Of a stretch of 64,000 nucleotides of DNA, positions 1-48,731 are shown piece by piece. The translations under genes were made by a program, and so were the position numbers. The notes under the pieces are model-generated. The model saw only the letters and a list, made by a program, of their open reading frames with translations, was not told the DNA's origin and did not search any database. Numbering within the stretch: the first letter of the stretch is position 1; every line of letters starts with the position of its first letter. Source of the DNA: a bacterium (lineage in GTDB: Bacteria > Patescibacteriota > Patescibacteriia > Patescibacteriales > XYC2-FULL-47-12); assembly GCA_030698385.1 (NCBI GenBank), contig JAUYLZ010000018.1:42744-106743 (forward strand), in the 5' to 3' direction.

Positions 1-769
1 TTAGATAGATTACATCCGAAACATCTTTGACTGAATGGTAACCGTGAACCAACAAATCCCTAACTATTTTAACAAGTGAATCAACTGGATCAAGAAAGGT
101 CGCGTGGGGGCCAATACTGCGAGCAATTTGATGTTTAATGCAGTTAAAACATGTGCAGGCAAGTATTACCGTATCAGACAACACTGATTCATACGCCGAA
201 AGTTCATCGGCTATCTCCTTCTTACCCTTGTTCGTGTTGAAACTTGCAGAAGCGACCGCACATTCGGATCTGGTTCCAATAATTTCTGTCAGCATTTTTG
301 GGGAGACCGGTCTGAGCGTCTCCTGATAAAACCCAGAGTTGATGGTCGATAACGTACCCATTATCGCAACATTCTTATTTGTTATTTCTGACGCATAGTC
401 ATGTATTAATTTCTTAAAACCATCAACCATGGATAATACTTTTATCTGAGTATTGTCCTGCATCTCACGAGTATGAAAATAAATGATACTTGCAGTATTA
501 CAAGCAAGGATAACTAACTTTGGTTTTATTGTTCCATTAATACATAGAGTAATCCACGAACTAACGATATCCATCAACTGCCCCTCACTTTTCAGACCGA
601 GAGGATTATACTCGGTGTCAGCTAAATATATAACATTGAAATTTCCCAAGAAAGGAAGAGTGGTTTTCAAAACACTTAAACCGCAAGCACACGAATCTAT
701 GATTACCACGGTAGATTTATGGGAATCAAATTTATCTTTTATTCCAATAAGAGACAGTTGAAGATTCAT
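1..769 (-). CDS. Asp/Glu racemase-family protein (MurI-like), C-terminus cut by window edge
   Basis: Absent from the ORF track because there is no in-window stop. My translation from the ATG at 769-767 reads MNLQLSLIGIKDKFDSHKSTVVIIDSCACGLSVL...VILACNTASII...VILACTCFN. It carries the two Cys-containing racemase motifs. The start lies 2 nt after the stop of ORF 772..1785. Confidence 0.6.
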   Translation of the reverse strand, partial: MNLQLSLIGIKDKFDSHKSTVVIIDSCACGLSVLKTTLPFLGNFNVIYLADTEYNPLGLKSEGQLMDIVSSWITLCINGTIKPKLVILACNTASIIYFHTREMQDNTQIKVLSMVDGFKKLIHDYASEITNKNVAIMGTLSTINSGFYQETLRPVSPKMLTEIIGTRSECAVASASFNTNKGKKEIADELSAYESVLSDTVILACTCFNCIKHQIARSIGPHATFLDPVDSLVKIVRDLLVHGYHSVKDVSDVIYL

Positions 770-28957: not shown

Positions 28958-29208
28958 CAGGCGGGCAAACGAAAAGAAGGCGGGCAAACGAAAAGAAGGC
29001 GGGCAAACGAAAAAAGAAGGCGGCCCAGCGCTTGGCCGCCTCCCGAGAAGAAAGAAGGCGGGCGTGGCCGCCTCCAGAGAAGAAAGAAGGCGGGCAAACG
29101 AAAAGAAGGCGGGCAAACGTTTGCCCGCCTTCTTGAATATTAAATTGCCCGCCTTCTTTCTTGAATATCGCATTGTCCGCCTTCTTGAATATCGCATTGT
29201 CCGCCTTC
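28958..29208. repeat. array of GAAGGCGGGCAAAC half-palindromes (forward block, perfect 28-nt palindrome, reverse block)
   Basis: Seven forward cores: five GGCGGGCAAAC at a 19-nt period and two variants forming GGCGGCC..GGCCGCC hairpins. The palindrome GAAGGCGGGCAAAC|GTTTGCCCGCCTTC is at 29105-29132. Three more TTG[C/T]CCGCCTTC follow at a 23-25 nt period. The 19-nt period rules out a coding repeat. Confidence 0.85.
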
Positions 29209-30229: not shown

Positions 30230-30270
30230 AAAAAATAATAAAGAAGGCGGGCAAACGTTTGCCCGCCTCC
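30230..30270 (-). terminator. aspS terminator built from the same palindrome
   Basis: Minus-sense AGGCGGGCAAACGTTTGCCCGCCT followed by TCTTTATTATTTTTTT. An extra half-site TTACCCGCCTTCTT lies at 30287-30300. Confidence 0.7.
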
Positions 30271-30318
30271 CCATATATCATATCGTATTACCCGCCTTCT
30301 TAATTGCTAATACTTTGT

Positions 30319-39368: not shown

Positions 39369-40523
39369 TTAACAAATTATTTTTTCAATGCGTTCAAGAC
39401 CGGCGCGCAACTGATTCTCACTCACCGCGCAGGTGATACGACAGCAATTGTCAAAATCGCCAAAAGCAATTCCCGGGACAACGGCGACATTGGCTTGGTT
39501 AAGCAAGTGCTCGGCAAATAGAATTGAATTGATTCCGTTTTTTTCATTCATAAACGGAGAAAAATCAGGGAAGGCGTAAAAACCGCCGTCAGCGCCGCCG
39601 CAAAAAATGTTTAACCTTTTAAACCAACACCACAACAGTTCTCTTTGTTTGGCATAGCAATGAATCAACGGCTCTTGATTAAGCGCCTCGACCGCCGCGC
39701 ACTGTCCAATGCTATTTGGGCAACCGGAAAATGTTTCTAAGTACAGCGTAACTTTTTGCGCCAACTCCGCCGGCATAATGCCGTAACCGATTCGCCAGCC
39801 CGTCATTGCGTACGCCTTGGAAAATGATCCGATAATGACCGCGTTTGGATCAAATCGTAAATAAGACTGTTCAAATCCGACCGGATAATAACATTCGTCA
39901 GAAATAACGGCAATGCCGGCCGTTCCCTGCCGATACCGCTTGGCCAGCTGGCTGATCTCTTTTACGACCGAATCGCTGTAAACGGCTCCAGTCGGATTAT
40001 TTGGCGTATTTAAAAGCAAGCAAATTAAGCCAACAAAACCGTTGGCAAGCAACGCTTGTAAATAACGCTCCATTTCACTGGTGACTGGGACAAAATTTTT
40101 GTCACACTCCAACAAATAAACCTTCCCTCCTAGCGATTTGATTCCAAAAAAGTAAGGCGGGTAATGCGGTGTCGGCATCAGCACCGGCTGATCCTGATCA
40201 ATGAGCGTCCAAAATACCGCTGTCGCGACGCTCTTGGCGCCATTGGAAATAACCACCTGTTCCGGTTTAACGCGGTACCTTTGAGCGATACCGGCGCGCA
40301 ACTCAATAGAGCCGCTGGCCGGCGTATACCTGGTTTGATGCAAGTTAATCGCTTTTTGAGCGTGCCTCTCAATTGCCTCAGGCGTATTAAGAAAAGATTC
40401 GCCCACTCCCAGATTAATAATCTCTCTTCCGTCTGCCTGCAAAGACTTAATTTTTTTCAATAAATCCTGCAATGGCGATGGTTCCAAATATTTGCTACGG
40501 AAACTAAACTGCGTTGACATCAC
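39369..40523 (-). CDS. class I/II PLP-dependent aminotransferase (aromatic/aspartate type)
   Basis: SFSKAYAMTGWRIGY Lys motif and NPNNPTG. Last gene after the PDT and PDH genes. Confidence 0.8.
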   Translation of the reverse strand: MMSTQFSFRSKYLEPSPLQDLLKKIKSLQADGREIINLGVGESFLNTPEAIERHAQKAINLHQTRYTPASGSIELRAGIAQRYRVKPEQVVISNGAKSVATAVFWTLIDQDQPVLMPTPHYPPYFFGIKSLGGKVYLLECDKNFVPVTSEMERYLQALLANGFVGLICLLLNTPNNPTGAVYSDSVVKEISQLAKRYRQGTAGIAVISDECYYPVGFEQSYLRFDPNAVIIGSFSKAYAMTGWRIGYGIMPAELAQKVTLYLETFSGCPNSIGQCAAVEALNQEPLIHCYAKQRELLWCWFKRLNIFCGGADGGFYAFPDFSPFMNEKNGINSILFAEHLLNQANVAVVPGIAFGDFDNCCRITCAVSENQLRAGLERIEKIIC

Positions 40524-40546: not shown

Positions 40547-41257
40547 TTAAAGAACTTTATTTTTTACTGACTGTATCGCTCTGACAAACTTACTAATTTC
40601 AGTTCTGGCGTAAGGATTGTACTGTATCATATCGGTAAACAGTTGCCAAGTGTCTTTACTAACATGATCGTTAATGGCCAACATTCTGTCAAAACCGGGC
40701 GTTTTGATCTTTTGATCTTTGATATTGGCGGCGCTAAGAGCTCGGCCGATAAAATGAACCAAGGCTAAGCTGCTTGCCGCCTGCCGGTCGTGATCCGACG
40801 GCGTGGTGATAATAATTTTTAAACCAAGACTCCTAAAAACCGCCTTTACTTTAGATAACATTTTTTTATCAATGGCAATCGGGCAAAGGACGATTTGCAG
40901 GTTGCGCAAACCAAATTTGGCGCTGTCCGGCCCAAACATCGGGTGCGTTCCTAAAATGTTTACGTCCGCGGGCAAATGTTTTCGCAACCACTCGCAAGGA
41001 TACACTTTTACCGAGGCCACGTCCATGATCACGGCGCCGGGCTTGAGCTTATTGCTGATATTTTTAATCAGACTCTCAAGTTTGGAAATAGGCACGGCCA
41101 AAATTATCCAATCCATTTCAGGCAGTTTTTGCAGGGTAGTAACTTTATGCCGGCAATTAACTTTTTTGTTGGCAATAATAAAAATCTGACCGTATGGCGC
41201 GAAAATTTTTGCCGCTAATTTTCCAAATCGACCGAAGCCGATAATGCAAATATTCAT
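40547..41257 (-). CDS. tyrA: prephenate/arogenate dehydrogenase
   Basis: MNICIIGFGRFGKLAA Rossmann start, DVASVK and HPMFGP. Confidence 0.75.
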   Translation of the reverse strand: MNICIIGFGRFGKLAAKIFAPYGQIFIIANKKVNCRHKVTTLQKLPEMDWIILAVPISKLESLIKNISNKLKPGAVIMDVASVKVYPCEWLRKHLPADVNILGTHPMFGPDSAKFGLRNLQIVLCPIAIDKKMLSKVKAVFRSLGLKIIITTPSDHDRQAASSLALVHFIGRALSAANIKDQKIKTPGFDRMLAINDHVSKDTWQLFTDMIQYNPYARTEISKFVRAIQSVKNKVL

Positions 41258-41258
41258 A

Positions 41259-41825
41259 CTATTTCTTGGCAGCCAAAATAAATGTCGTAAAGTTGAACTT
41301 CAAATCCTGAATGCTCTCTTCAAGTATTTCTAAGTCATACAATTCAGCCGCGCGTTTGGGCGCGATGACCGCAGCATTGGATGGCAATACTCCGGCGGAC
41401 AAATCTTTGGCTGCCTGCGCCGTGTCGCTCCACTCAATTAATTCAGCGCCTTGCCAACGCCTTTTTAAATACATACGGCATTGTTTTAAAGCCTGATCAT
41501 GAGATGCAATTTTTTTTATATCTTCTTTAGCGACTCCTGGCAAAGCCATTAAATTGTGCTTAACATCAATTTCGAAGATATTTTCAATTGAAAAAGTATG
41601 TTTAGCCATAGCGTAAATCGCTTCATATACTATACCTCCGTTTGAGTTTTCAATCGGAAAAACTCCTCTGTCAATTTTGCCGCCAATTAATGAATTTAAA
41701 ACATTTTCAACACTGATTAAATATCTTAATTCATAATCAACGATATTGTTTTTTTGGCAATAATATTGCGCGGCTTCTTCGGAAAAACTGCCCTCACTGC
41801 CGGACACGCCGATTGTTATATGCAT
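41259..41825 (-). CDS. pheA: prephenate dehydratase domain protein (no ACT domain)
   Basis: 188 aa. GSEGSFSEEAA and VFPIENSNGGIV PDT motifs. Ends before any regulatory ACT domain. Confidence 0.8.
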   Translation of the reverse strand: MHITIGVSGSEGSFSEEAAQYYCQKNNIVDYELRYLISVENVLNSLIGGKIDRGVFPIENSNGGIVYEAIYAMAKHTFSIENIFEIDVKHNLMALPGVAKEDIKKIASHDQALKQCRMYLKRRWQGAELIEWSDTAQAAKDLSAGVLPSNAAVIAPKRAAELYDLEILEESIQDLKFNFTTFILAAKK

Positions 41826-41908: not shown

Positions 41909-42151
41909 TTAAGCAACCTGTTCAATAAAATCTGAACTGCAATCCAATACTTTTACTATACCGATTTTCACTTTTTTTTCAAATCTTTCAATGGTTTCAA
42001 TATCGCTGATCGCAACCTCAGCGAACAGCTCCGGATGCTGTTCATCATAATAAATGAGCAGGCCAATGTTTTCCGCAGCTTTTGCGTAATTAATTAAATC
42101 GCTAAAAGTTGCTTCATTATTCAGTTTCTCTAAATTCCGCCATAAAACCAT
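41909..42151 (-). CDS. hypothetical 80-aa protein
   Basis: Start moved to MVLWRNLEK (AAGGAG, then 8 nt, then ATG). The track uses an upstream TTG. Confidence 0.4.
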   Translation of the reverse strand: MVLWRNLEKLNNEATFSDLINYAKAAENIGLLIYYDEQHPELFAEVAISDIETIERFEKKVKIGIVKVLDCSSDFIEQVA

Positions 42152-42170: not shown

Positions 42171-42344
42171 CTACTTATAGTTTCTGACAAAACTCCAACT
42201 TCTGCGTCCCTTGAATAAATTTTTACACTTGCTTCGCTTCTGATGCCAATACCTAGCTCGGTTATTTTCTTGATTCACGTCTTCCGTGCTTTCTTGAGTA
42301 AATTCAGTCTCCACATCTTGTTCTTTGCTACATTTTTTCTGCAT
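42171..42344 (-). CDS. hypothetical 57-aa protein (acidic N-terminus, basic C-terminus)
   Basis: Not in the track. AAGGAG, then 8 nt, then ATG: MQKKCSKEQDVETEFTQESTEDVNQENNRARYWHQKRSKCKNLFKGRRSWSFVRNYK*. Confidence 0.35.
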   Translation of the reverse strand: MQKKCSKEQDVETEFTQESTEDVNQENNRARYWHQKRSKCKNLFKGRRSWSFVRNYK

Positions 42345-42432
42345 TTGATATTCTCCTTCTTGCCCCGTCCTTTAGGCGGGGTTCATTTTTTTATTTTTTT
42401 AAAAGAACAACTCCCTTTCTTGAACTAAAATA

Positions 42433-42623
42433 TAAAAAAACTGACCCCCTTGCGGAAGCCAGTTTTTTTGTTTCCCTAATGATGTATTATAACTTATAAA
42501 ACATCACCAAAAACTGCACTTCCGCGCTGGAAGCCGTAAAAGAAAAAGCTAAAGCTTAATACAGTTTTTGCTAATGTTTTAATCATATGTGGATATTCTA
42601 ACACAGATTTTTAAAAAAAACAA
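42433..42623 (-). promoter_or_regulatory. Phe-type leader-peptide transcription attenuator
   Basis: TGtTAGAAT extended -10 (42595-42600) sits 8 nt before the AUG. Antiterminator GCGGAAG-TG-CAGTTTTT pairs with AAAAACTG-G-CTTCCGC. Terminator ACTGGCTTC cgcaag GGGGTCAGT plus U7 (42433-42466). Confidence 0.6.
42494..42586 (-). CDS. Phe/Tyr-rich leader peptide (30 aa)
   Basis: MIKTLAKTVLSFSFFFYGFQRGSAVFGDVL*. Not in the track. No SD; the AUG is 8 nt after the -10. Confidence 0.55.
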   Translation of the reverse strand: MIKTLAKTVLSFSFFFYGFQRGSAVFGDVL

Positions 42624-42746
42624 GCGGTTGTCCACACCGCGCTAAAACAGAGCTTATTACGGTATAAATAAATCAATTAATTAAAGCTAATATTAAAATA
42701 AAAAACCACTTTTTAAACAAAAGTGGCTAAAAAATTAGATTACAAT

Positions 42747-43615: not shown

Positions 43616-45280
43616 CTAAACTGCTACTTCTTTAGGAAGTTCCTCTTGGCTTGACTTTGATTCTAAATGAGCCAAAAACCAGCTCAAACAATTGGCAAAC
43701 GACTGAGCTGTCGCTTGAGTCGTATCAAGATCAACTGAATGGCCGGTAAACAGATTGTGGCCATTATTTTCTACGCGAATCCGAGAAAAAACCGTGGCCA
43801 ATCCTTCAGTACCACCGCCTTTAACAAGACCAGCTTTCCAATCGTCAAGTTTTATTTCCCAATTATTTAAATCGGGGAAAAAATGCTTGGCGGCGGTCAA
43901 GACGGCTTTCATCACGGCGTCATATGTTCCGTCTCCTGAATTTGTTACGGTAACGGAATTTCCGTTAACTGCCATAGATACCGCGGCGGTCGGAATCGTG
44001 CCGCTGCCGCCAAATGCCTGACAGTGAGTAATATTCATGAGATAAGGAACGTCATCTACGCAATCTTGAACGATGGCCGCTATCTCTTCTTCGGAAGCCT
44101 CTCTCATGTTCTTTGATTCTGACAGCCGCATCACCTGTTCATAAATTACCTGCAACTGGTCTCTAGCCACCTTGTAACCCATTTCCTCAAGTTTTTTTTG
44201 CACGCCGGGACGACCAGAGTTAACGTCAATGACATAATTAAACTTGACGCCATGGCCATACTTGGAAGGATCCCAGCTGTAATAAGGACTGGTTTTATTC
44301 TGCTTCTCGGCCTTTTCCTCAATGCCTTGGTGCGTGCCCGCGCTGCAAATTTTATTCTGTTCCCCAACCACCGGCCAATGACGCGGCACGGTCATACCAA
44401 GCTTATTGGCAATGAAGTGAACTATTCTGCAACAATGACTAATGTCAAAATTAACTGCCAAGTTGACAAACCTAATATCTTGCATACAATCACTGCGTGT
44501 GGCCAAATTCCAAAGAATTGATTCGAATTTTGTCATGCCGCTGCGCTCACCCAGTCCAAAAAAAGTTCCTTCAACAATACTTGCGCCCCGCAAAATTGCC
44601 TGCAAAGCATTGTTGGTTGCGTGATCACTGTCGTTATGACAATGGACTGAAATGTGCGCGTCGGCAATATTTGAAACACGTTCAAATAATGTTTTAATAA
44701 TGCTTCCAAATTCATCACCAATTCGCAAACCGGTTGTGTCTGGAATGTTTACCACGGTGGCGCCGGCGTCTATAACGGTCTCGACAATCTCACACAGAAA
44801 ATCAATTTCAGTGCGTGCGGCATCTTCGGGAGAAAATTCCACATGTTCAAAACCGATACTGCGCGCGTATCGCACTATCCGCTCGGCAGTATTTAGATAC
44901 CACTGCTGTTTCCCCTCTTTGGTATCCCCATACTTGCTGTCATAAAACTGGGTCAAAAGCAATTCGTCGCTGGTTGGAATATAGATATGACACAAATCAC
45001 AACCGGCTTCCTTAACCGCCATCACACCTTTCTCCAGCGCAATTGTCAAACCGCCTAAGAGCGGCCTATCTTCCACACTCAGTTCATTAACAAACTTAAC
45101 AATTCTTTGACAATTTTCCATTTGCTTTTGCGAGCTATATGGATAGCCAATCTCAATTCGATCAATACCGCCATCAATCAACATTTTAACATAGGTTAAT
45201 TGATCCTGCGGCGACATGGAGCCACCTTCAACCTGCGCTGACTCCCGCAAAGCTACATCGTTTAATAATATCCTTCTCAT
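43616..45280 (-). CDS. leuA: 2-isopropylmalate synthase (with C-terminal LeuA regulatory domain)
   Basis: 554 aa with an HMGL-like barrel (IEIGYP, HCHNDSDHATNNAL) and a long C-terminal domain. Followed by terminator AGAGCCATT..AATGGCTCT plus a U run. Confidence 0.8.
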   Translation of the reverse strand: MRRILLNDVALRESAQVEGGSMSPQDQLTYVKMLIDGGIDRIEIGYPYSSQKQMENCQRIVKFVNELSVEDRPLLGGLTIALEKGVMAVKEAGCDLCHIYIPTSDELLLTQFYDSKYGDTKEGKQQWYLNTAERIVRYARSIGFEHVEFSPEDAARTEIDFLCEIVETVIDAGATVVNIPDTTGLRIGDEFGSIIKTLFERVSNIADAHISVHCHNDSDHATNNALQAILRGASIVEGTFFGLGERSGMTKFESILWNLATRSDCMQDIRFVNLAVNFDISHCCRIVHFIANKLGMTVPRHWPVVGEQNKICSAGTHQGIEEKAEKQNKTSPYYSWDPSKYGHGVKFNYVIDVNSGRPGVQKKLEEMGYKVARDQLQVIYEQVMRLSESKNMREASEEEIAAIVQDCVDDVPYLMNITHCQAFGGSGTIPTAAVSMAVNGNSVTVTNSGDGTYDAVMKAVLTAAKHFFPDLNNWEIKLDDWKAGLVKGGGTEGLATVFSRIRVENNGHNLFTGHSVDLDTTQATAQSFANCLSWFLAHLESKSSQEELPKEVAV

Positions 45281-45446: not shown

Positions 45447-45656
45447 AAAAAACAAAAAGCCACCCGTTTGGATGGTTTTCTACAACTTTTATACGTTTAT
45501 ATATGAATTAACGCCTTACGCTTTCGCGTTTAAACCATCCAAAAAATCTCGGCCAAGGAGGCTGAGCAAGAGGCTTAAAAGCAATAAGCTTTTGCTAATT
45601 TTTTGCATGATTTTACTCATATATAAATATCCTAACATATTTTTAAAAACTGTCAA
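45447..45656 (-). promoter_or_regulatory. Leu-type leader-peptide transcription attenuator upstream of leuA
   Basis: TTGACA-16-TAGGAT, with the AUG 8 nt after the -10. Antiterminator TTTGGATGGTTT (in the CDS, plus 45532-45543) pairs with AAACCATCCAAA (45467-45478). Terminator CCATCCaaacGGGTGG followed by CUUUUUGUUUUUU. Confidence 0.65.
45516..45620 (-). CDS. Leu-rich leader peptide (34 aa)
   Basis: MSKIMQKISKSLLLLSLLLSLLGRDFLDGLNAKA*. Nine Leu in an 11-residue stretch, using TTA/TTG/CTT/CTC codons. Not in the track. Confidence 0.6.
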   Translation of the reverse strand: MSKIMQKISKSLLLLSLLLSLLGRDFLDGLNAKA

Positions 45657-46171
45657 ATCGCACGCTGTTGCTGTAGTATTTTTACCTGTTTTTCCAATTC
45701 TTGGTACTTTTGTTTTAATTCCTGAACATCACTATTCATTGCCGCCACATCCTCAGATTCCATTCTCATAATACGATCAATTTTTGCCTCAACGCGCGCC
45801 AAATCATTCCGAAATGTTTCCATTTCTGTATGAATCATGCTCAATTCATGTTTAACAAAAACCATGTCCTGCTTTAAACCAGAAACATCTTCTTTCAAAC
45901 CAGAAACATCTTCTTTCAAACCAGAAACATCTTCTTTCAAACCAGAAACATCTTCTTTCAAGCCAGAAACATCTTCTTTCAAACCAGAAACATCTTCTTT
46001 CAAACCAGAAACATCTTCTTTCAAACCAGAAACATCTTCTTTCAAACCAGAAACATCCTGCTTTAAAACACCAATATCTTTTTTAATTGGCTCAAGCGCA
46101 ACATCAAGCGCCGCCTCAATACTGACGTCAATTACTTCTTTGATTGATTGTAGATCACTTTTATCTAACAT
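45653..46171 (-). CDS. coiled-coil protein with DVSGLK[EQ] heptad array
   Basis: 172 aa, nine consecutive 7-aa units, helical flanks. Confidence 0.6.
   Translation of the reverse strand: MLDKSDLQSIKEVIDVSIEAALDVALEPIKKDIGVLKQDVSGLKEDVSGLKEDVSGLKEDVSGLKEDVSGLKEDVSGLKEDVSGLKEDVSGLKEDVSGLKQDMVFVKHELSMIHTEMETFRNDLARVEAKIDRIMRMESEDVAAMNSDVQELKQKYQELEKQVKILQQQRAI
45876..46064. repeat. 21-bp tandem repeat, about 9 units
   Basis: AAACCAGAAACATCTTCTTTC repeated head to tail. One unit has AAG for AAA; the last has ..CATCCTGCTTT. Confidence 0.9.
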
Positions 46172-46288
46172 AAAATATTAATTTACTTTAACTGTATGTT
46201 ATCACTTTCTTATATAAAAAACAAGAGCCGTTCCAAAAACGAAACGGCTCGAAAAACCATAAAGAACAAATAAAAAATAATGCGCTGT

Positions 46289-46636
46289 TTAAAATGTTGC
46301 TACCGGCTGTGTATTATGTATTTGCGGAAGGTCACGCCGTTCCACCTGAAATTCAGGCGGAAACACAACTTGTAAACTCTGACAAAGATGATTGCCTGAT
46401 TTATTTTCAACTGGATAACAATCACCCCAATTAACTGGACCATTCCTTGAAGCGCAAAGAAACCACTTATATTCTCGCCACGCCTTTGCATTCTGACGAT
46501 GCAAATTTTCCCAAAAGGCTCTAATCCCACCCATATCTGCTGATACCGTCATTAGTACCGCGTTAATTGGATGTTCCTTGTTACTTTGAAAAAGCGCGAA
46601 AAGACCCACATTTTTGGCACTCCCTGAATCATGCAT
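46289..46636 (-). CDS. hypothetical 115-aa protein
   Basis: Start moved to MHDSGSAKN (AGAGGTGG, then 3 nt, then ATG). Followed by terminator GAGCCGTT..AACGGCTC plus a U run. Confidence 0.4.
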   Translation of the reverse strand: MHDSGSAKNVGLFALFQSNKEHPINAVLMTVSADMGGIRAFWENLHRQNAKAWREYKWFLCASRNGPVNWGDCYPVENKSGNHLCQSLQVVFPPEFQVERRDLPQIHNTQPVATF

Positions 46637-46710
46637 AATCCACCTCTTTCTTATTTTTTTTAAGCACACACTTTTGCAAGTTGCGGCTCCTCTGTCTAAA
46701 TAAGACAACT

Positions 46711-46901
46711 AAAAAAGTCCCGCCGGGGCGGAACTTTTCTCTGTTGAATTATTTATGCTTTTATATATGAGAAAAACTTCCACCCCCAGGCTGGCTAATA
46801 ATAATACTAATAATACTTGCCCCGCCTTTATGGCTGGGGATTGTTTTGCGGAAATTTTTCATAGTTACTTATTATATTATCATAATAAAAATGTTTGTCA
46901 A
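46711..46901 (-). promoter_or_regulatory. Ile-type leader-peptide transcription attenuator
   Basis: TTGACA-16-TAATAT, with the AUG 11 nt after the -10. Antiterminator GGGGTGGAAgTTTT (CDS, plus 46773-46786) pairs with AAAAgTTCCGCCCC. Terminator GTTCCGC(C)cc(G)GCGGGAC plus U6 (46711-46734). Confidence 0.55.
46761..46862 (-). CDS. Ile-rich leader peptide (33 aa)
   Basis: MKNFRKTIPSHKGGASIISIIISQPGGGSFSHI*. Five ATT codons within six positions. Not in the track. Confidence 0.5.
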   Translation of the reverse strand: MKNFRKTIPSHKGGASIISIIISQPGGGSFSHI

Positions 46902-47003: not shown

Positions 47004-47783
47004 ATGTTTATAACTATTATCAATGACTGCCAAGACGATAACGCGCGCGCTCGACAATTAACCCGCGTTTCAACATTATTTAAGGTTCCGGCCAATTTTG
47101 TCAGTGTCAAAAATGACCTGGAAGCGGCCGGAAATATTATTGACATTCTGGATGCGTCGCAGAAAAAAACCGGCGCAGTCTTGGTAAATGTCGCACCGCG
47201 CAACGGCTCTGCCAAACACTGGAAAAACGGTACGCCTTTCGCTTATTTTTATTATGGCAAAACTTTGGCGCTCGCCTCGGTTGACGGCCTTACTCTGTCG
47301 TTGGTTAAAAAATTAAAACTGACCAAATTCGTAAATATCCTAGATCTGGAAAAAAGTGTAAAGCTCATGGAAAAAAAAAAGAAACTATCAACATCTGAGG
47401 TTGGTAAAATTATCAATACGCAATTCCGCAGTTTTGAATTCCTGCCACGCGCGGCCAGCTGGCTCACACAGGGTTATAAATTGCCTTTTGAAAAAATTAG
47501 TATTGAAAAAATTTCTGACGCGCCAAATGCCATTTGGTGGATTGATAACTTCGGCAACTGCAAAACAACTGTCTTAAGCGCCGAATTAGCAGAAATAAAA
47601 CTTATAAAAAAACTGCAAAAACTTCCCTGCTATCCACGGCTTAAAGATTTGCCGGATAACAAAACCGGTTTAATCGCGGGCAGTTCCGGCATTAATAATA
47701 ACCGCTTTGTTGAAATAATGACTCAAGGCGACAGTACGGCCAAGAAGTTAAAACTAAAGAGTGGTGAAGTTATCGCAAAATAA
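47004..47783 (+). CDS. divergent DUF62 / SAM hydroxide adenosyltransferase-like protein
   Basis: From my recall of archaeal DUF62 sequences, WWIDNFGNCKTTV matches IYIDDFGNVILNL. Likewise NRFVEIMTQGDSTAKKLKLKSGEVI matches [23 protein letters not shown]. The N-terminal TDFG motif is replaced by NDCQ. Confidence 0.5.
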   Translation: MFITIINDCQDDNARARQLTRVSTLFKVPANFVSVKNDLEAAGNIIDILDASQKKTGAVLVNVAPRNGSAKHWKNGTPFAYFYYGKTLALASVDGLTLSLVKKLKLTKFVNILDLEKSVKLMEKKKKLSTSEVGKIINTQFRSFEFLPRAASWLTQGYKLPFEKISIEKISDAPNAIWWIDNFGNCKTTVLSAELAEIKLIKKLQKLPCYPRLKDLPDNKTGLIAGSSGINNNRFVEIMTQGDSTAKKLKLKSGEVIAK

Positions 47784-47839: not shown

Positions 47840-48154
47840 TTAATTGGTGATCTGCTTTAGCTGATCAGCCGACATTTTTTCACAAATTTCTTTAGCCAGA
47901 ATAATATCAACTGGACCGCCATTTAAATTTAATGACTGGATTGCCTTTTTTACTGTTATAAAAACAACTTCCTCTTCTCTTGGGTGATAGTCGGCGAACG
48001 TATAAAGCAACTTCCTGTCTCCGGTCACAACCATTTTAATGCCCGCTTTGTAGCAATAATTAGATTTGTTAACCGGAAAACCTTTTCGAACTCTAGCTTG
48101 CGGTCTAAACTGTGTTACTCCATCATCAAACATGATTTCAATTTTCATCATCAT
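47840..48154 (-). CDS. hypothetical 104-aa protein
   Basis: Track ORF. GGAG lies upstream. Immediately follows the 56-aa ORF. Confidence 0.4.
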   Translation of the reverse strand: MMMKIEIMFDDGVTQFRPQARVRKGFPVNKSNYCYKAGIKMVVTGDRKLLYTFADYHPREEEVVFITVKKAIQSLNLNGGPVDIILAKEICEKMSADQLKQITN

Positions 48155-48169: not shown

Positions 48170-48340
48170 TTAAAATCTAACGGTAGCGACATTTTCTTGC
48201 AATCTTCGTAAATGATAGCCCAACTTTCTTTGTTCGTAACTATCTTTCTTATTCAATCTTTCAAGCTTGTGTTTAATCTGAAAAATCTGTCGACTGCATT
48301 CCTCAACTTTTACTACTACTGACGGTGTCACTTCGCGCAT
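48170..48340 (-). CDS. hypothetical 56-aa protein
   Basis: Not in the track. AGGAGG, then 7 nt, then ATG: MREVTPSVVVKVEECSRQIFQIKHKLERLNKKDSYEQRKLGYHLRRLQENVATVRF*. Confidence 0.4.
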   Translation of the reverse strand: MREVTPSVVVKVEECSRQIFQIKHKLERLNKKDSYEQRKLGYHLRRLQENVATVRF

Positions 48341-48364: not shown

Positions 48365-48566
48365 AAAAGATCAAACTAAAGAGGCCACCCTTTTGGATGG
48401 CCTCAATTTTTATTTTGCTAATATATTAAAACGATAAATGCCATCCAAAAAATGCCGAAGCAATAACTGCTACGACGACTGCGAGTACTACTGCTAAAAC
48501 AGCGTTAATTTTTTGGATAGCTAAACTCATATTTATATATTTTAGCTGATACTAAAATTTTGTCAA
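48365..48566 (-). promoter_or_regulatory. Val/Ala-type leader-peptide transcription attenuator
   Basis: TTGACA-16-TAAAAT, with the AUG 8 nt after the -10. Antiterminator TTTTGGATGGC (CDS, plus 48440-48450) pairs with GCCATCCAAAA. Terminator GAGGCCATCCaaaaGGGTGGCCTC (48381-48404) followed by UUUAGUUUG. Confidence 0.6.
48426..48530 (-). CDS. Val/Ala-rich leader peptide (34 aa)
   Basis: MSLAIQKINAVLAVVLAVVVAVIASAFFGWHLSF*. Seven Val and seven Ala. Not in the track. Confidence 0.5.
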   Translation of the reverse strand: MSLAIQKINAVLAVVLAVVVAVIASAFFGWHLSF

Positions 48567-48608: not shown

Positions 48609-48731
48609 CTATTCATCTTTATCATCATTTTCTTTTGTTATAAAAATTTTGGCTAAAACTACAGCGATACCGGCAATTAAGGCGGCGATTAAAACAATCG
48701 GTTTATTAATTGTTTTGATAACTTTTTTCAT
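48609..48731 (-). CDS. 40-aa single-TM peptide coupled to ndk
   Basis: MKKVIKTINKPIVLIAALIAGIAVVLAKIFITKENDDKDE*. The ATG lies 2 nt after the ndk stop. The N-terminus resembles the four leader peptides, but there is no terminator or alternative hairpin. Confidence 0.4.
   Translation of the reverse strand: MKKVIKTINKPIVLIAALIAGIAVVLAKIFITKENDDKDE

Follow-up and report, generated by a model that had tools for sequence, protein, structure and literature searches.

A putative isoleucine-responsive attenuator with a nearly leaderless sensory open reading frame upstream of an uncharacterised 115-aa protein gene in Patescibacteria

The window analysed here, a whole 64,000-nt stretch of contig JAUYLZ010000018.1 (all coordinates are in window numbering), carries on its minus strand a leader element, the Ile leader, in which a small open reading frame (ORF) with a run of isoleucine codons and an intrinsic terminator precede the gene for an uncharacterised 115-aa protein. 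We conclude that the Ile leader is probably a ribosome-mediated, isoleucine-responsive transcription attenuator of the leader-peptide kind, on a nearly leaderless mRNA, as judged from sequence comparison and modelled RNA folding. An Ile-type attenuator had been proposed at this position by a sequence-only reading, and the proposal appears well supported by (i) a homologous unit conserved in a second genome, (ii) the rarity of the pairing between the ORF and the terminator, and (iii) parallel Leu and Phe leaders whose run amino acid matches the cargo behind them. The in silico basis comprises the elements of the leader and the alternative ways in which they pair, how rare statistically and how conserved these features are, and a geometry that fits the scheme. 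The window was assigned to Patescibacteria (Candidate Phyla Radiation) from its neighbouring genes and their homologs, and the G+C content of the genome is 40%.

Architecture of the Ile leader

The element and its surroundings comprise the following features, in which codon numbers are those of the leader ORF.

46901..46874, minus strand: promoter-like site, sigma-70-like, with TTGACA (46901..46896), a 16-nt spacer, and TG-n-TAATAT (-10 box 46879..46874)
46862..46761, minus strand: leader ORF of 33 codons plus stop, product MKNFRKTIPSHKGGASIISIIISQPGGGSFSHI, without a Shine-Dalgarno sequence
46860..46848, minus strand: region 1, the putative anti-antiterminator, GAAAAAUUUCCGC, whose first base is the G of the start codon; predicted to pair with region 2 when translation is absent
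46814..46797, minus strand: Ile run, the putative regulatory codons 17-22 (ATT ATT AGT ATT ATT ATT)
46787..46771, minus strand: region 2, the anti-arm (codons 26-31), GGGGGUGGAAGUUUUUC, with region 1 or the terminator left arm as alternative partners
46740..46711, minus strand: intrinsic terminator, with region 3 AGAAAAGUUCCGC (46740..46728), loop CCCG, region 4 GCGGGAC (46723..46717), and U6 (46716..46711)
46636..46289, minus strand: putatively regulated gene, encoding the 115-aa protein (NCBI locus tag Q8Q23_02255), with the Shine-Dalgarno sequence GAGGTGG 4 nt before its ATG
46250..46225, minus strand: closing terminator after the 115-aa gene

The promoter-like site matches the consensus at 10 of 12 positions and has an extended -10 element. 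The leader ATG (46862) lies 11 nt past the -10 box, so that the predicted 5' untranslated region measures only ∼3-5 nt and the mRNA would be nearly leaderless. The five ATT codons in six positions noticed in the sequence-only reading were confirmed at codons 17-22 of the ORF, the stop codon of which is separated from the intrinsic terminator by 26 nt. That reading had also paired a segment of the ORF, at 13 of 14 positions with one G.U, with the left half of a terminator followed by U6; both the pairing and its target (46740..46711) held. The segment GGGGTGGAAGTTTT, inside 46787..46771, forms 12 Watson-Crick pairs and one G.U pair with AAAAGTTCCGCCCC, the remaining position being a G/G mismatch, and as RNA this 2:3 pairing reads GGGGUGGAAGUUUU with AAAAGUUCCGCCCC. 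The terminator hairpin stood likewise, except for its eighth C-G pair, which would leave a 2-nt loop; the effective stem is therefore counted as 7 bp (GUUCCGC/GCGGGAC) with a 4-nt loop, and AGAAAA/UUUUUU extends it to 13 pairs. The downstream half of the terminator, after the loop CCCG, reads GCGGGACUUUUUU.

The minimum-free-energy structure of the leader (-59.9 kcal/mol; z=-5.5, 0/200 shuffles) consists of the 1:2 and 3:4 helices. Its first helix is a third pairing, in which the first 13 nt of the ORF (GAAAAAUUUCCGC) join GUGGAAGUUUUUC, the same segment as the anti-arm. Since region 1 and the terminator left arm compete for one segment, the leader has the full 1:2, 2:3, 3:4 layout, and the duplex energies in the window are -17.0 kcal/mol for 1:2 and -27.2 kcal/mol for 2:3. 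The sequence-only reading had missed both the ORF start as a partner of the anti-arm and the promoter geometry, by which the ORF becomes nearly leaderless.

Downstream of the terminator, 74 nt lead to the 115-aa ORF and its strong Shine-Dalgarno sequence GAGGTGG, which lies outside the switching helices; the alternative structure is thus an intrinsic terminator and involves no sequestration of the ribosome-binding site. Our promoter scan found no promoter-like site between the terminator and the 115-aa gene, and this gene is, as had been claimed, the only one before the next terminator (46250..46225). We also observed that the segment 3' of the terminator U tract (AGUUGU.UU..UUA; window 46740..46690, minus strand; L042, another locus, 10..60) is conserved; together with an upstream CAAC/AAAUAAU it lengthens the terminator hairpin, and the same UUUAGUU follows the terminator of a Val-type leader in the window.

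On this layout, transcription would start a few bases before the AUG of the 33-codon ORF. If the ORF stayed untranslated, region 1 would pair with region 2, and the terminator (3:4) would form. With plentiful Ile-tRNA, the ribosome would reach the stop codon and cover region 2, again letting the terminator form and ending transcription at U6. With scarce Ile-tRNA, the ribosome would instead stall within codons 17-22, the ATT run. Region 2, the start of which is ∼10 nt (three codons) past the last ATT, would stay free and pair with the emerging terminator left arm, and RNA polymerase would then read through into the 115-aa gene. The transcription start, the translation of the ORF, the stalling, the read-through, and the response to isoleucine are all predictions of this scheme.

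The codon run and the anti-arm are rare in the window

To each of 41 terminator-like hairpins in the window we applied a terminator-arm test, in which the left arm was compared with the 100 nt upstream and the best duplex was set against dinucleotide shuffles. The Ile terminator ranks 2/41 for upstream arm complementarity (z=-4.9, 0/100 shuffles), and with 1000 shuffles its 2:3 complementarity gave z=-6.05 (0/1000). Four modules of the window with orphan terminators (Val, Ile, Leu, and Phe) together occupy ranks 1, 2, 5, and 6 of the 41. Further, a codon-run scan of 1054 window ORFs of 15-70 codons found at least five of six identical codons at this locus alone, in the Ile ORF and its antisense ORF.

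These counts bear on the reading that the leader is a product of chance, an AT-rich, microsatellite-like (ATT)n stretch that happens to lie beside a terminator. While ATTATTATT is present 10 times in the window and the G+C content of the genome is only 40%, the run, the complementarity (0/1000 shuffles), and a whole unit conserved in a second genome (below) make a rare combination, and we consider such a coincidence scarcely credible.

No Rfam family reached its gathering score in the window, including the Leu, Phe, His, Thr, and Trp leader families and the T-box; the best sub-threshold local matches were STnc100 (24.7 vs 47 bits, E=0.004) and Phe_leader (20.5 vs 55 bits). The Ile leader has every testable structural feature of a leader-peptide attenuator, while standing outside the curated Rfam leader families.

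A homologous unit is conserved in a second genome

A second Patescibacteria genome, at locus L045, was found via its LeuA-like gene; this locus is syntenic with the window and holds a complete homologous unit. This unit consists of (i) TTGACA-16-TAATAT, 8 nt, and an ATG; (ii) an ORF, MKTFYSIIIIITIIISQPLGGSFLISR, with 8 Ile in 9 codons; (iii) the anti-arm GGGUGGAAGUUUU, the same as that of the window, with the nucleotide sequence GGGTGGAAGTTTT kept; and (iv) a 14-bp terminator followed by a homologous 115-aa gene. Its 2:3 duplex has an energy of -19.4 kcal/mol (z=-4.06, 1/500 shuffles), and its 1:2 duplex, at -17.0 kcal/mol, equals that of the window. The 1:2 helix shows a correlated change between the two genomes, GAAAACUUUC/GGAAGUUUUC in L045 vs GAAAAAUUUCC/GGAAGUUUUUC in the window (A4C/GU4 in L045, A5/U5 in the window). 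L042 comprises the 110 nt upstream of the gene for P0002, a relative of the 115-aa protein, and it contains a terminator whose position and flanks (AGAAAAG...CUUUUUUAGUUGU) agree with those in the window; in its stem, five pairs are changed on both sides with the pairing preserved, and the stem in L045 likewise differs while its flanks are conserved. The co-occurrence with an Ile-rich leader that the sequence-only reading would have looked for in related genomes is seen in the full unit of L045, and L042 keeps the terminator and its flanks. Synteny through the SAM-hydrolase-like neighbour gave nothing further, as none of 40 loci carries the unit beside that gene.

The leader peptide itself appears to be loosely constrained. 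The window ORF has a 21-nt (7-codon) insertion in its N-terminal half relative to that of L045, which argues against a constrained peptide. Moreover, the two leaders use an identical codon at 13/16 conserved residues, against a background of 46% (398/857, four flanking genes; P=0.005), and this excess of same-codon use points to constraint on the nucleotides.

We weighed against this the reading that the small ORF is a gene in its own right, which has a terminator of its own and makes a functional small or membrane peptide, in which case the pairings would be incidental and the 115-aa gene expressed separately. A genuine small hydrophobic peptide is indeed encoded nearby (48731..48609, conserved in L045), the peptide of the Val-type leader resembles a transmembrane helix, and some stretches of the Ile and Phe leader peptides show amino-acid conservation. 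The longest hydrophobic stretch of the Ile peptide, however, is ∼8 residues (SIISIIIS), the remainder being polar or Gly-rich, which is too short for a membrane-spanning segment, and the peptide tolerates the 7-codon indel. It is the codons and nucleotides that are conserved, chiefly in the anti-arm, the complementarity of which far exceeds chance and is specific to these modules; the run amino acid agrees with the downstream pathway for Leu, Phe, Met, and ilv leaders (below); and the 115-aa gene has no promoter-like site of its own. The small ORF is hence conserved in L045 together with the RNA pairings, and not as a membrane peptide, and we regard an independent peptide gene as very unlikely.

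Modelled ribosome positions place the switch at the end of the Ile run

To follow the attenuation scheme in silico, a 28-nt ribosome footprint was forced unpaired at each A-site position of every leader. At equilibrium, the full-length Ile leader without a ribosome adopted the form with the 1:2 helix and the terminator. With the A site at codons 2-14 or 20-22, the antiterminator was predicted, with a terminator probability of ∼0, whereas from codon 23 to the stop codon this probability was 0.9-1.0.

Since the stronger terminators of other leaders always win at equilibrium, the mechanism has to be kinetic, and for this we used a truncated-transcript proxy instead: the transcript was cut right before the right arm of the terminator, and we scored whether the left arm was already paired. 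Nine leaders were modelled in this way, namely the four of the window, the Leu and Phe leaders of L041, and the Ile leaders of L045, L005, and L011. In the truncated transcript of the window Ile leader, the left arm was at least 90% sequestered for A-site positions from codon 2 to codon 22 or 23 and was freed beyond them; whether the footprint reached 12, 15, or 18 nt, the switch fell at codons 22-24. Seven of the nine leaders (the four of the window, L041 Leu and Phe, and L045 Ile) kept the left arm sequestered at ≥0.8, mostly ≥0.9, up to the last run codon and freed it 1-2 codons later; the L045 Ile leader switched at the same point past its Ile run as that of the window. The Ile leaders of L005 and L011 were the exceptions, with release about five codons past the last Ile (codon 18-19). 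In the model, this geometry fits the scheme in which region 2 is free while the ribosome stalls on the regulatory codons and is covered once the ribosome has reached the stop codon.

The 115-aa protein belongs to a small, fast-evolving, isoleucine-poor family

The sequence-only reading had staked its proposal on the conservation of the 115-aa ORF, and we found a family of three members (window, L045, and P0002 of L041/L042) with pairwise identities of 27-44%, each preceded by a terminator. P0002 was the only relative returned by an exhaustive HMMER search of 1.8 billion representatives (33-37% identity, E=2e-8), and it lies on short contigs; the direct homolog search, the genome-contig scan, and the metagenome scan found just the protein itself and one relative. 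The third member, in L045, was reached solely through synteny with the LeuA-like gene, and it shares 27% identity with the window protein (E=1e-11) and 44% with P0002 (E=3e-34). The residues invariant in all three include W42, H46, W53, W58-F59-L60, N69-W70, C73, and C85. Between the window and L045, the 115-aa protein has diverged to 27% identity, compared with 57-63% for its neighbours.

The claim that this protein has no recognisable domain was upheld, in that there was no credible match in Pfam (E up to 10), NCBIfam, PHROG, or PDB sequences. Structure prediction, which had been suggested as a check, failed to give a usable model, as AlphaFold2 on a two-sequence alignment of the family reached a predicted local distance difference test score of 51. 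Homology of the 115-aa protein to the 81-aa protein behind the Ile leader of L011 was considered and rejected, as was the interpretation of a 102-aa protein behind the Leu leader of L041 as a LeuA regulatory domain, to which it has no similarity.

The three members contain 3, 0, and 3 Ile in 115, 115, and 120 residues, that is 1.7% vs an 8.2% background that is taken from this window and applied to the other genomes too (P=1.5e-7), and this fraction lies under the minimum among 46 long window ORFs. The small proteins behind other Ile-type leaders, unrelated to the family, are also Ile-poor, and all cargo together has 12 Ile in 577 residues (P=3e-10). As the 115-aa protein is nearly free of isoleucine, it could still be made when Ile-tRNA is limiting, and the Ile-poor cargo is circumstantially in keeping with proteins that would be needed under Ile-tRNA limitation.

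The steady link between leader and cargo also bears on another role for the RNA, namely that the ∼155-nt terminated transcript acts mainly as a trans-acting small RNA, with attenuation secondary, or that it has both roles. Its own promoter, 5' hairpin, and terminator hairpin give it the typical shape of a small RNA, and rnTrpL of Sinorhizobium is reported as a precedent for a dual-function attenuator RNA (PMC7968998). An ORF with a codon run is unnecessary for a small RNA, though, and the leader has stayed linked to the same cargo family; such a role would moreover be compatible with attenuation. We give a predominantly trans-acting RNA a slight chance and favour the attenuator.

Sister leaders in the window

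Starting from terminators without a preceding long ORF, we identified four leader modules on the minus strand within 6.5 kb (Val/Ala-rich, Ile, Leu, and Phe-rich). The three sisters of the Ile leader are as follows.

48566..48372, minus strand: Val/Ala-rich leader, predicted leaderless, with ORF 48530..48426 (MSLAIQKINAVLAVVLAVVVAVIASAFFGWHLSF) and terminator 48404..48381
45656..45448, minus strand: Leu-type leader, with TTGACA-16-TGnTAGGAT, 8 nt, ATG (45620), and ORF MSKIMQKISKSLLLLSLLLSLLGRDFLDGLNAKA
42640..42430, minus strand: Phe-type leader, predicted leaderless, with ORF 42586..42494 (MIKTLAKTVLSFSFFFYGFQRGSAVFGDVL) and terminator 42467..42436

The Leu leader lies 1.2 kb downstream of the Ile leader. 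Its ORF is the sole window ORF with at least 8/11 identical residues, and an in-ORF segment, UUUGGAUGGUUU, shows full complementarity to the left arm of its terminator (45475..45460), which ranks 1/41 in the terminator-arm test (z=-5.8). The gene that follows (45280..43616, minus strand) belongs to the LeuA family (HMGL-like and LeuA_dimer), in a Patescibacteria-specific clade with 46-57% identity, and the Leu leader is conserved in L041, L045, and L047-L051. The Phe leader is followed by two small ORFs (42344..42171 and 42151..41909, minus strand) and then by genes 41825..41259, 41257..40547, and 40523..39369 (minus strand), a row encoding prephenate dehydratase, prephenate dehydrogenase, and an aminotransferase. 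Its DNA is ∼81% identical between the window and L041, while the proteins of both genomes are ∼35% identical, and its same-codon use vs L045 is 15/18. On L041, a 2.1-kb contig, homologs of the window's leaders stand in the same order, one a leaderless leader with a Leu run and the other a Phe-rich leader. Two of the four leaders, Leu and Phe, thus match the downstream pathway, and this is the main reason for reading the Ile module alike.

The Val/Ala-rich leader precedes genes for 56-aa and 104-aa hypothetical proteins (48340..48170 and 48154..47840, minus strand). Its anti-arm and terminator core (UUUUUUGGAUGG / CCAUCCAAA) almost match those of the Leu leader, a likeness suggestive of an origin of the modules by duplication, and a homologous module with a 119-aa gene is present at L045 7818..7980. 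Its peptide resembles a transmembrane helix, and the ORF could instead encode a genuine transmembrane peptide.

Other features of the neighbourhood were noted as well. The reading frame 48731..48609 (minus strand) encodes a 40-aa small membrane protein, MKKVIKTINKPIVLIAALIAGIAVVLAKIFITKENDDKDE, and is kept in L045 (7658..7798), the products being transmembrane peptides of 40-46 aa; genuine small hydrophobic proteins therefore coexist with the leader ORFs. At 46171..45653 (minus strand), the window encodes a 172-aa coiled-coil protein with ∼10 tandem heptads DVSGLKE. Its L045 ortholog, at 63% identity, has about three fewer heptad copies, so that the repeat number varies between genomes, and the antisense frame of the gene is likewise open (45837..46181, plus strand). 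Near-identical G+C-rich hairpins with T tails (GGCGGGCAAACGUUUGCCCGCC and relatives) are clustered within ∼1.3 kb at 29015..29133 and 30241..30272 (minus strand) and may be a repeated terminator or REP-like element.

Related leaders in other Patescibacteria

We scanned 431 kb of other Patescibacteria loci for a small run-containing ORF followed by a terminator and found the following leaders, among others.

L005 6649..6498 (MRSIFSIIASIIINSPVAGRYFGRLSID) and L011 7461..7310 (MKSNFTIIASIIINSPVTGRYFGRLSKS), minus strand: independent Ile-type leaders with the classical four-region layout
L001 5751..5843, L004 5856..5933, L005 5277..5336, L011 5801..5860, L013 5870..5935, and L035 5853..5924: Met-run leader ORFs with terminators
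L046 14783..14902 (MTEKLPKILDIVVVVSLIIPT, Val/Ile) and L047 15724..15845 (MIKKLPKNLDIVVVVSLIIPT): ilv-type leaders, with predicted leaderless 21-codon ORFs and a terminator

The Ile leaders of L005 and L011 are ∼80% identical to each other, and their region 1 (GCCUCC) lies within the Ile run. Their cargo differs (60 aa in L005 vs 69 and 81 aa in L011) and is Ile-poor. The Met-run leaders (e.g., MNVKAQIEMMMAMMTLKNEGTFSYI) stand directly upstream of a SAM-hydroxide-adenosyltransferase-like gene in at least six genomes; with the anti-arm examined in L004 alone, the arrangement looks like a Met-responsive attenuator before an enzyme able to release methionine from SAM. The window's own SAM-hydroxide-adenosyltransferase-like gene (47004..47783, plus strand) is without a Met leader. 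The Leu leader precedes a LeuA-clade gene in every case examined (window, L045, L047, L048, L049, L050, and L051), whereas Phe leaders elsewhere precede DAHP synthase and chorismate mutase genes or small ORFs. The ilv-type leaders of L046 and L047 head a complete row of ilvA-like, ilvE, ilvD, ilvB, and ilvC, so that some Patescibacteria encode the whole branched-chain amino-acid pathway, with LeuA-like, LeuCD, and LeuB genes alongside. The distance from the end of the -10 box to the ATG is 6-9 nt in nine related leaders and 11 nt in the window Ile leader, and none has a Shine-Dalgarno sequence. With this geometry in nearly all leaders, the sensory ORFs are predicted to be leaderless.

The comparison among Ile leaders bears on whether another signal might switch the leader terminator, be it a metabolite (through a riboswitch), an RNA-binding protein (possibly the 115-aa protein), or the overall translation rate. 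For such a signal speak the conservation of a terminator between promoter and gene in three genomes, a strongly structured leader that has no Rfam match, and a cargo that is no Ile-pathway enzyme. The sole feature common to the unrelated Ile leaders (window and L045 vs L005 and L011), on the other hand, is the Ile run just upstream of the anti-arm, and in each Ile-type leader the position of the switch follows that of the last Ile codon. The window leader, further, has no conserved unpaired core resembling a ligand pocket, and it holds the 21-nt insertion. A different signal is accordingly unlikely in our judgement, and sensing of Ile-tRNA through the ribosome is preferred.

Weighing the attenuator reading

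Several points weigh against our interpretation of the Ile leader as an attenuator. Its entire support is computational. As the leader ORF has no Shine-Dalgarno sequence, its translation depends on leaderless initiation, which is predicted from promoter spacing alone. In the equilibrium model, the 1:2 helix still forms around a ribosome with its A site at codons 15-19, so that a ribosome stalled at either of the first two ATT codons would cause antitermination only with the help of steric exclusion or trailing ribosomes, and the stronger terminators of the Val, Phe, and L041 leaders never yield to the antiterminator at equilibrium. The homologous leaders are two full units and one partial one, which leaves the covariation support thin; the Ile depletion relies on a background drawn from one window; and the 115-aa cargo has no detectable link to Ile metabolism, in contrast to classical attenuators.

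If these leaders are real, reduced and often host-dependent bacteria would monitor individual aminoacyl-tRNA pools via leaderless sensory ORFs, in a radiation whose regulation is almost unexplored. A physiological condition, Ile limitation, would be tied to an unannotated protein family, providing a concrete handle on an ORFan, and the signature of -10 box, 6-11 nt, ATG, codon run, anti-arm, and terminator could serve to map the starvation regulons of Patescibacteria. A broader and more speculative possibility, which we put forward only tentatively and think rather doubtful at present, is that Patescibacteria possess a 'ribulon', a set of leaderless attenuators for Ile, Leu, Val, Phe, and Met that each sense one aminoacyl-tRNA. 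Several of them would switch on small, fast-evolving, lineage-specific proteins poor in the amino acid being sensed, in place of biosynthetic enzymes. In that case, members of the 115-aa family would serve a reduced, host-dependent bacterium as starvation effectors, for example in acquiring or sparing isoleucine or in acting on the host, and they would offer an entry point to nutrient sensing and response in these organisms.

Comparison with known systems

The classical leader-peptide attenuators are those of enterobacterial amino-acid operons, namely ilvL/ilvGMEDA, ivbL/ilvBN, leuL, pheL, trpL, hisL, and thrL. The Ile leader resembles them in (i) a short ORF that repeats codons for the sensed amino acid in tandem; (ii) mutually exclusive 1:2, 2:3, and 3:4 hairpins; (iii) an intrinsic terminator before the structural gene; and (iv) the choice of hairpin by the position of the stalled ribosome, which is modelled here. 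It differs from them in that its ORF is nearly leaderless and has no Shine-Dalgarno sequence, and in that region 1 is formed by the very 5' end, start codon included. Its run is purely Ile with the single codon ATT and not mixed Ile/Val/Leu, and its cargo is a small uncharacterised protein rather than a biosynthetic operon, in a Patescibacteria host. The downstream gene lies in the pathway of the sensed amino acid for the sister Leu and Phe leaders, but not for the Ile leader.

T-box riboswitches are the usual sensors of Ile-tRNA in Firmicutes. The Ile leader shares with them a terminator/antiterminator switch and the predicted sensing of tRNA charging, but it is without a specifier loop, a T-box motif, or an Rfam match, and its sensing would go through translation.

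The literature that we searched contained no paper linking the Candidate Phyla Radiation with transcription attenuation. The Ile leader is thus a predicted case of this mechanism in a phylum where attenuation had no description, and it is attached to what appears, by sequence, to be an Ile-depleted uncharacterised family. Outside the proteobacteria, small leader peptides upstream of trpE, leuA, ilvB, and aroF in Corynebacterium glutamicum have been proposed to act by transcription attenuation (PMC3890552). The Patescibacteria leaders, likewise from outside the proteobacteria, also precede leuA, ilvB, and genes of aromatic amino acids; while the C. glutamicum leaders stand before cognate biosynthetic genes, the Ile element would control an uncharacterised, fast-evolving protein.

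The mycobacterial polycysteine attenuators are reported (bioRxiv 10.1101/834739) to have leaderless small ORFs in several independent copies per genome, the 'Cys ribulon', which respond collectively by ribosome pausing and act by unmasking a sequestered ribosome-binding site, a translational control. The two systems share leaderless (here predicted) sensory short ORFs with single-amino-acid runs, in several independent copies per genome, and they differ in the amino acids, in the phylum, and in the switch, which in the Ile leader is an intrinsic transcription terminator.

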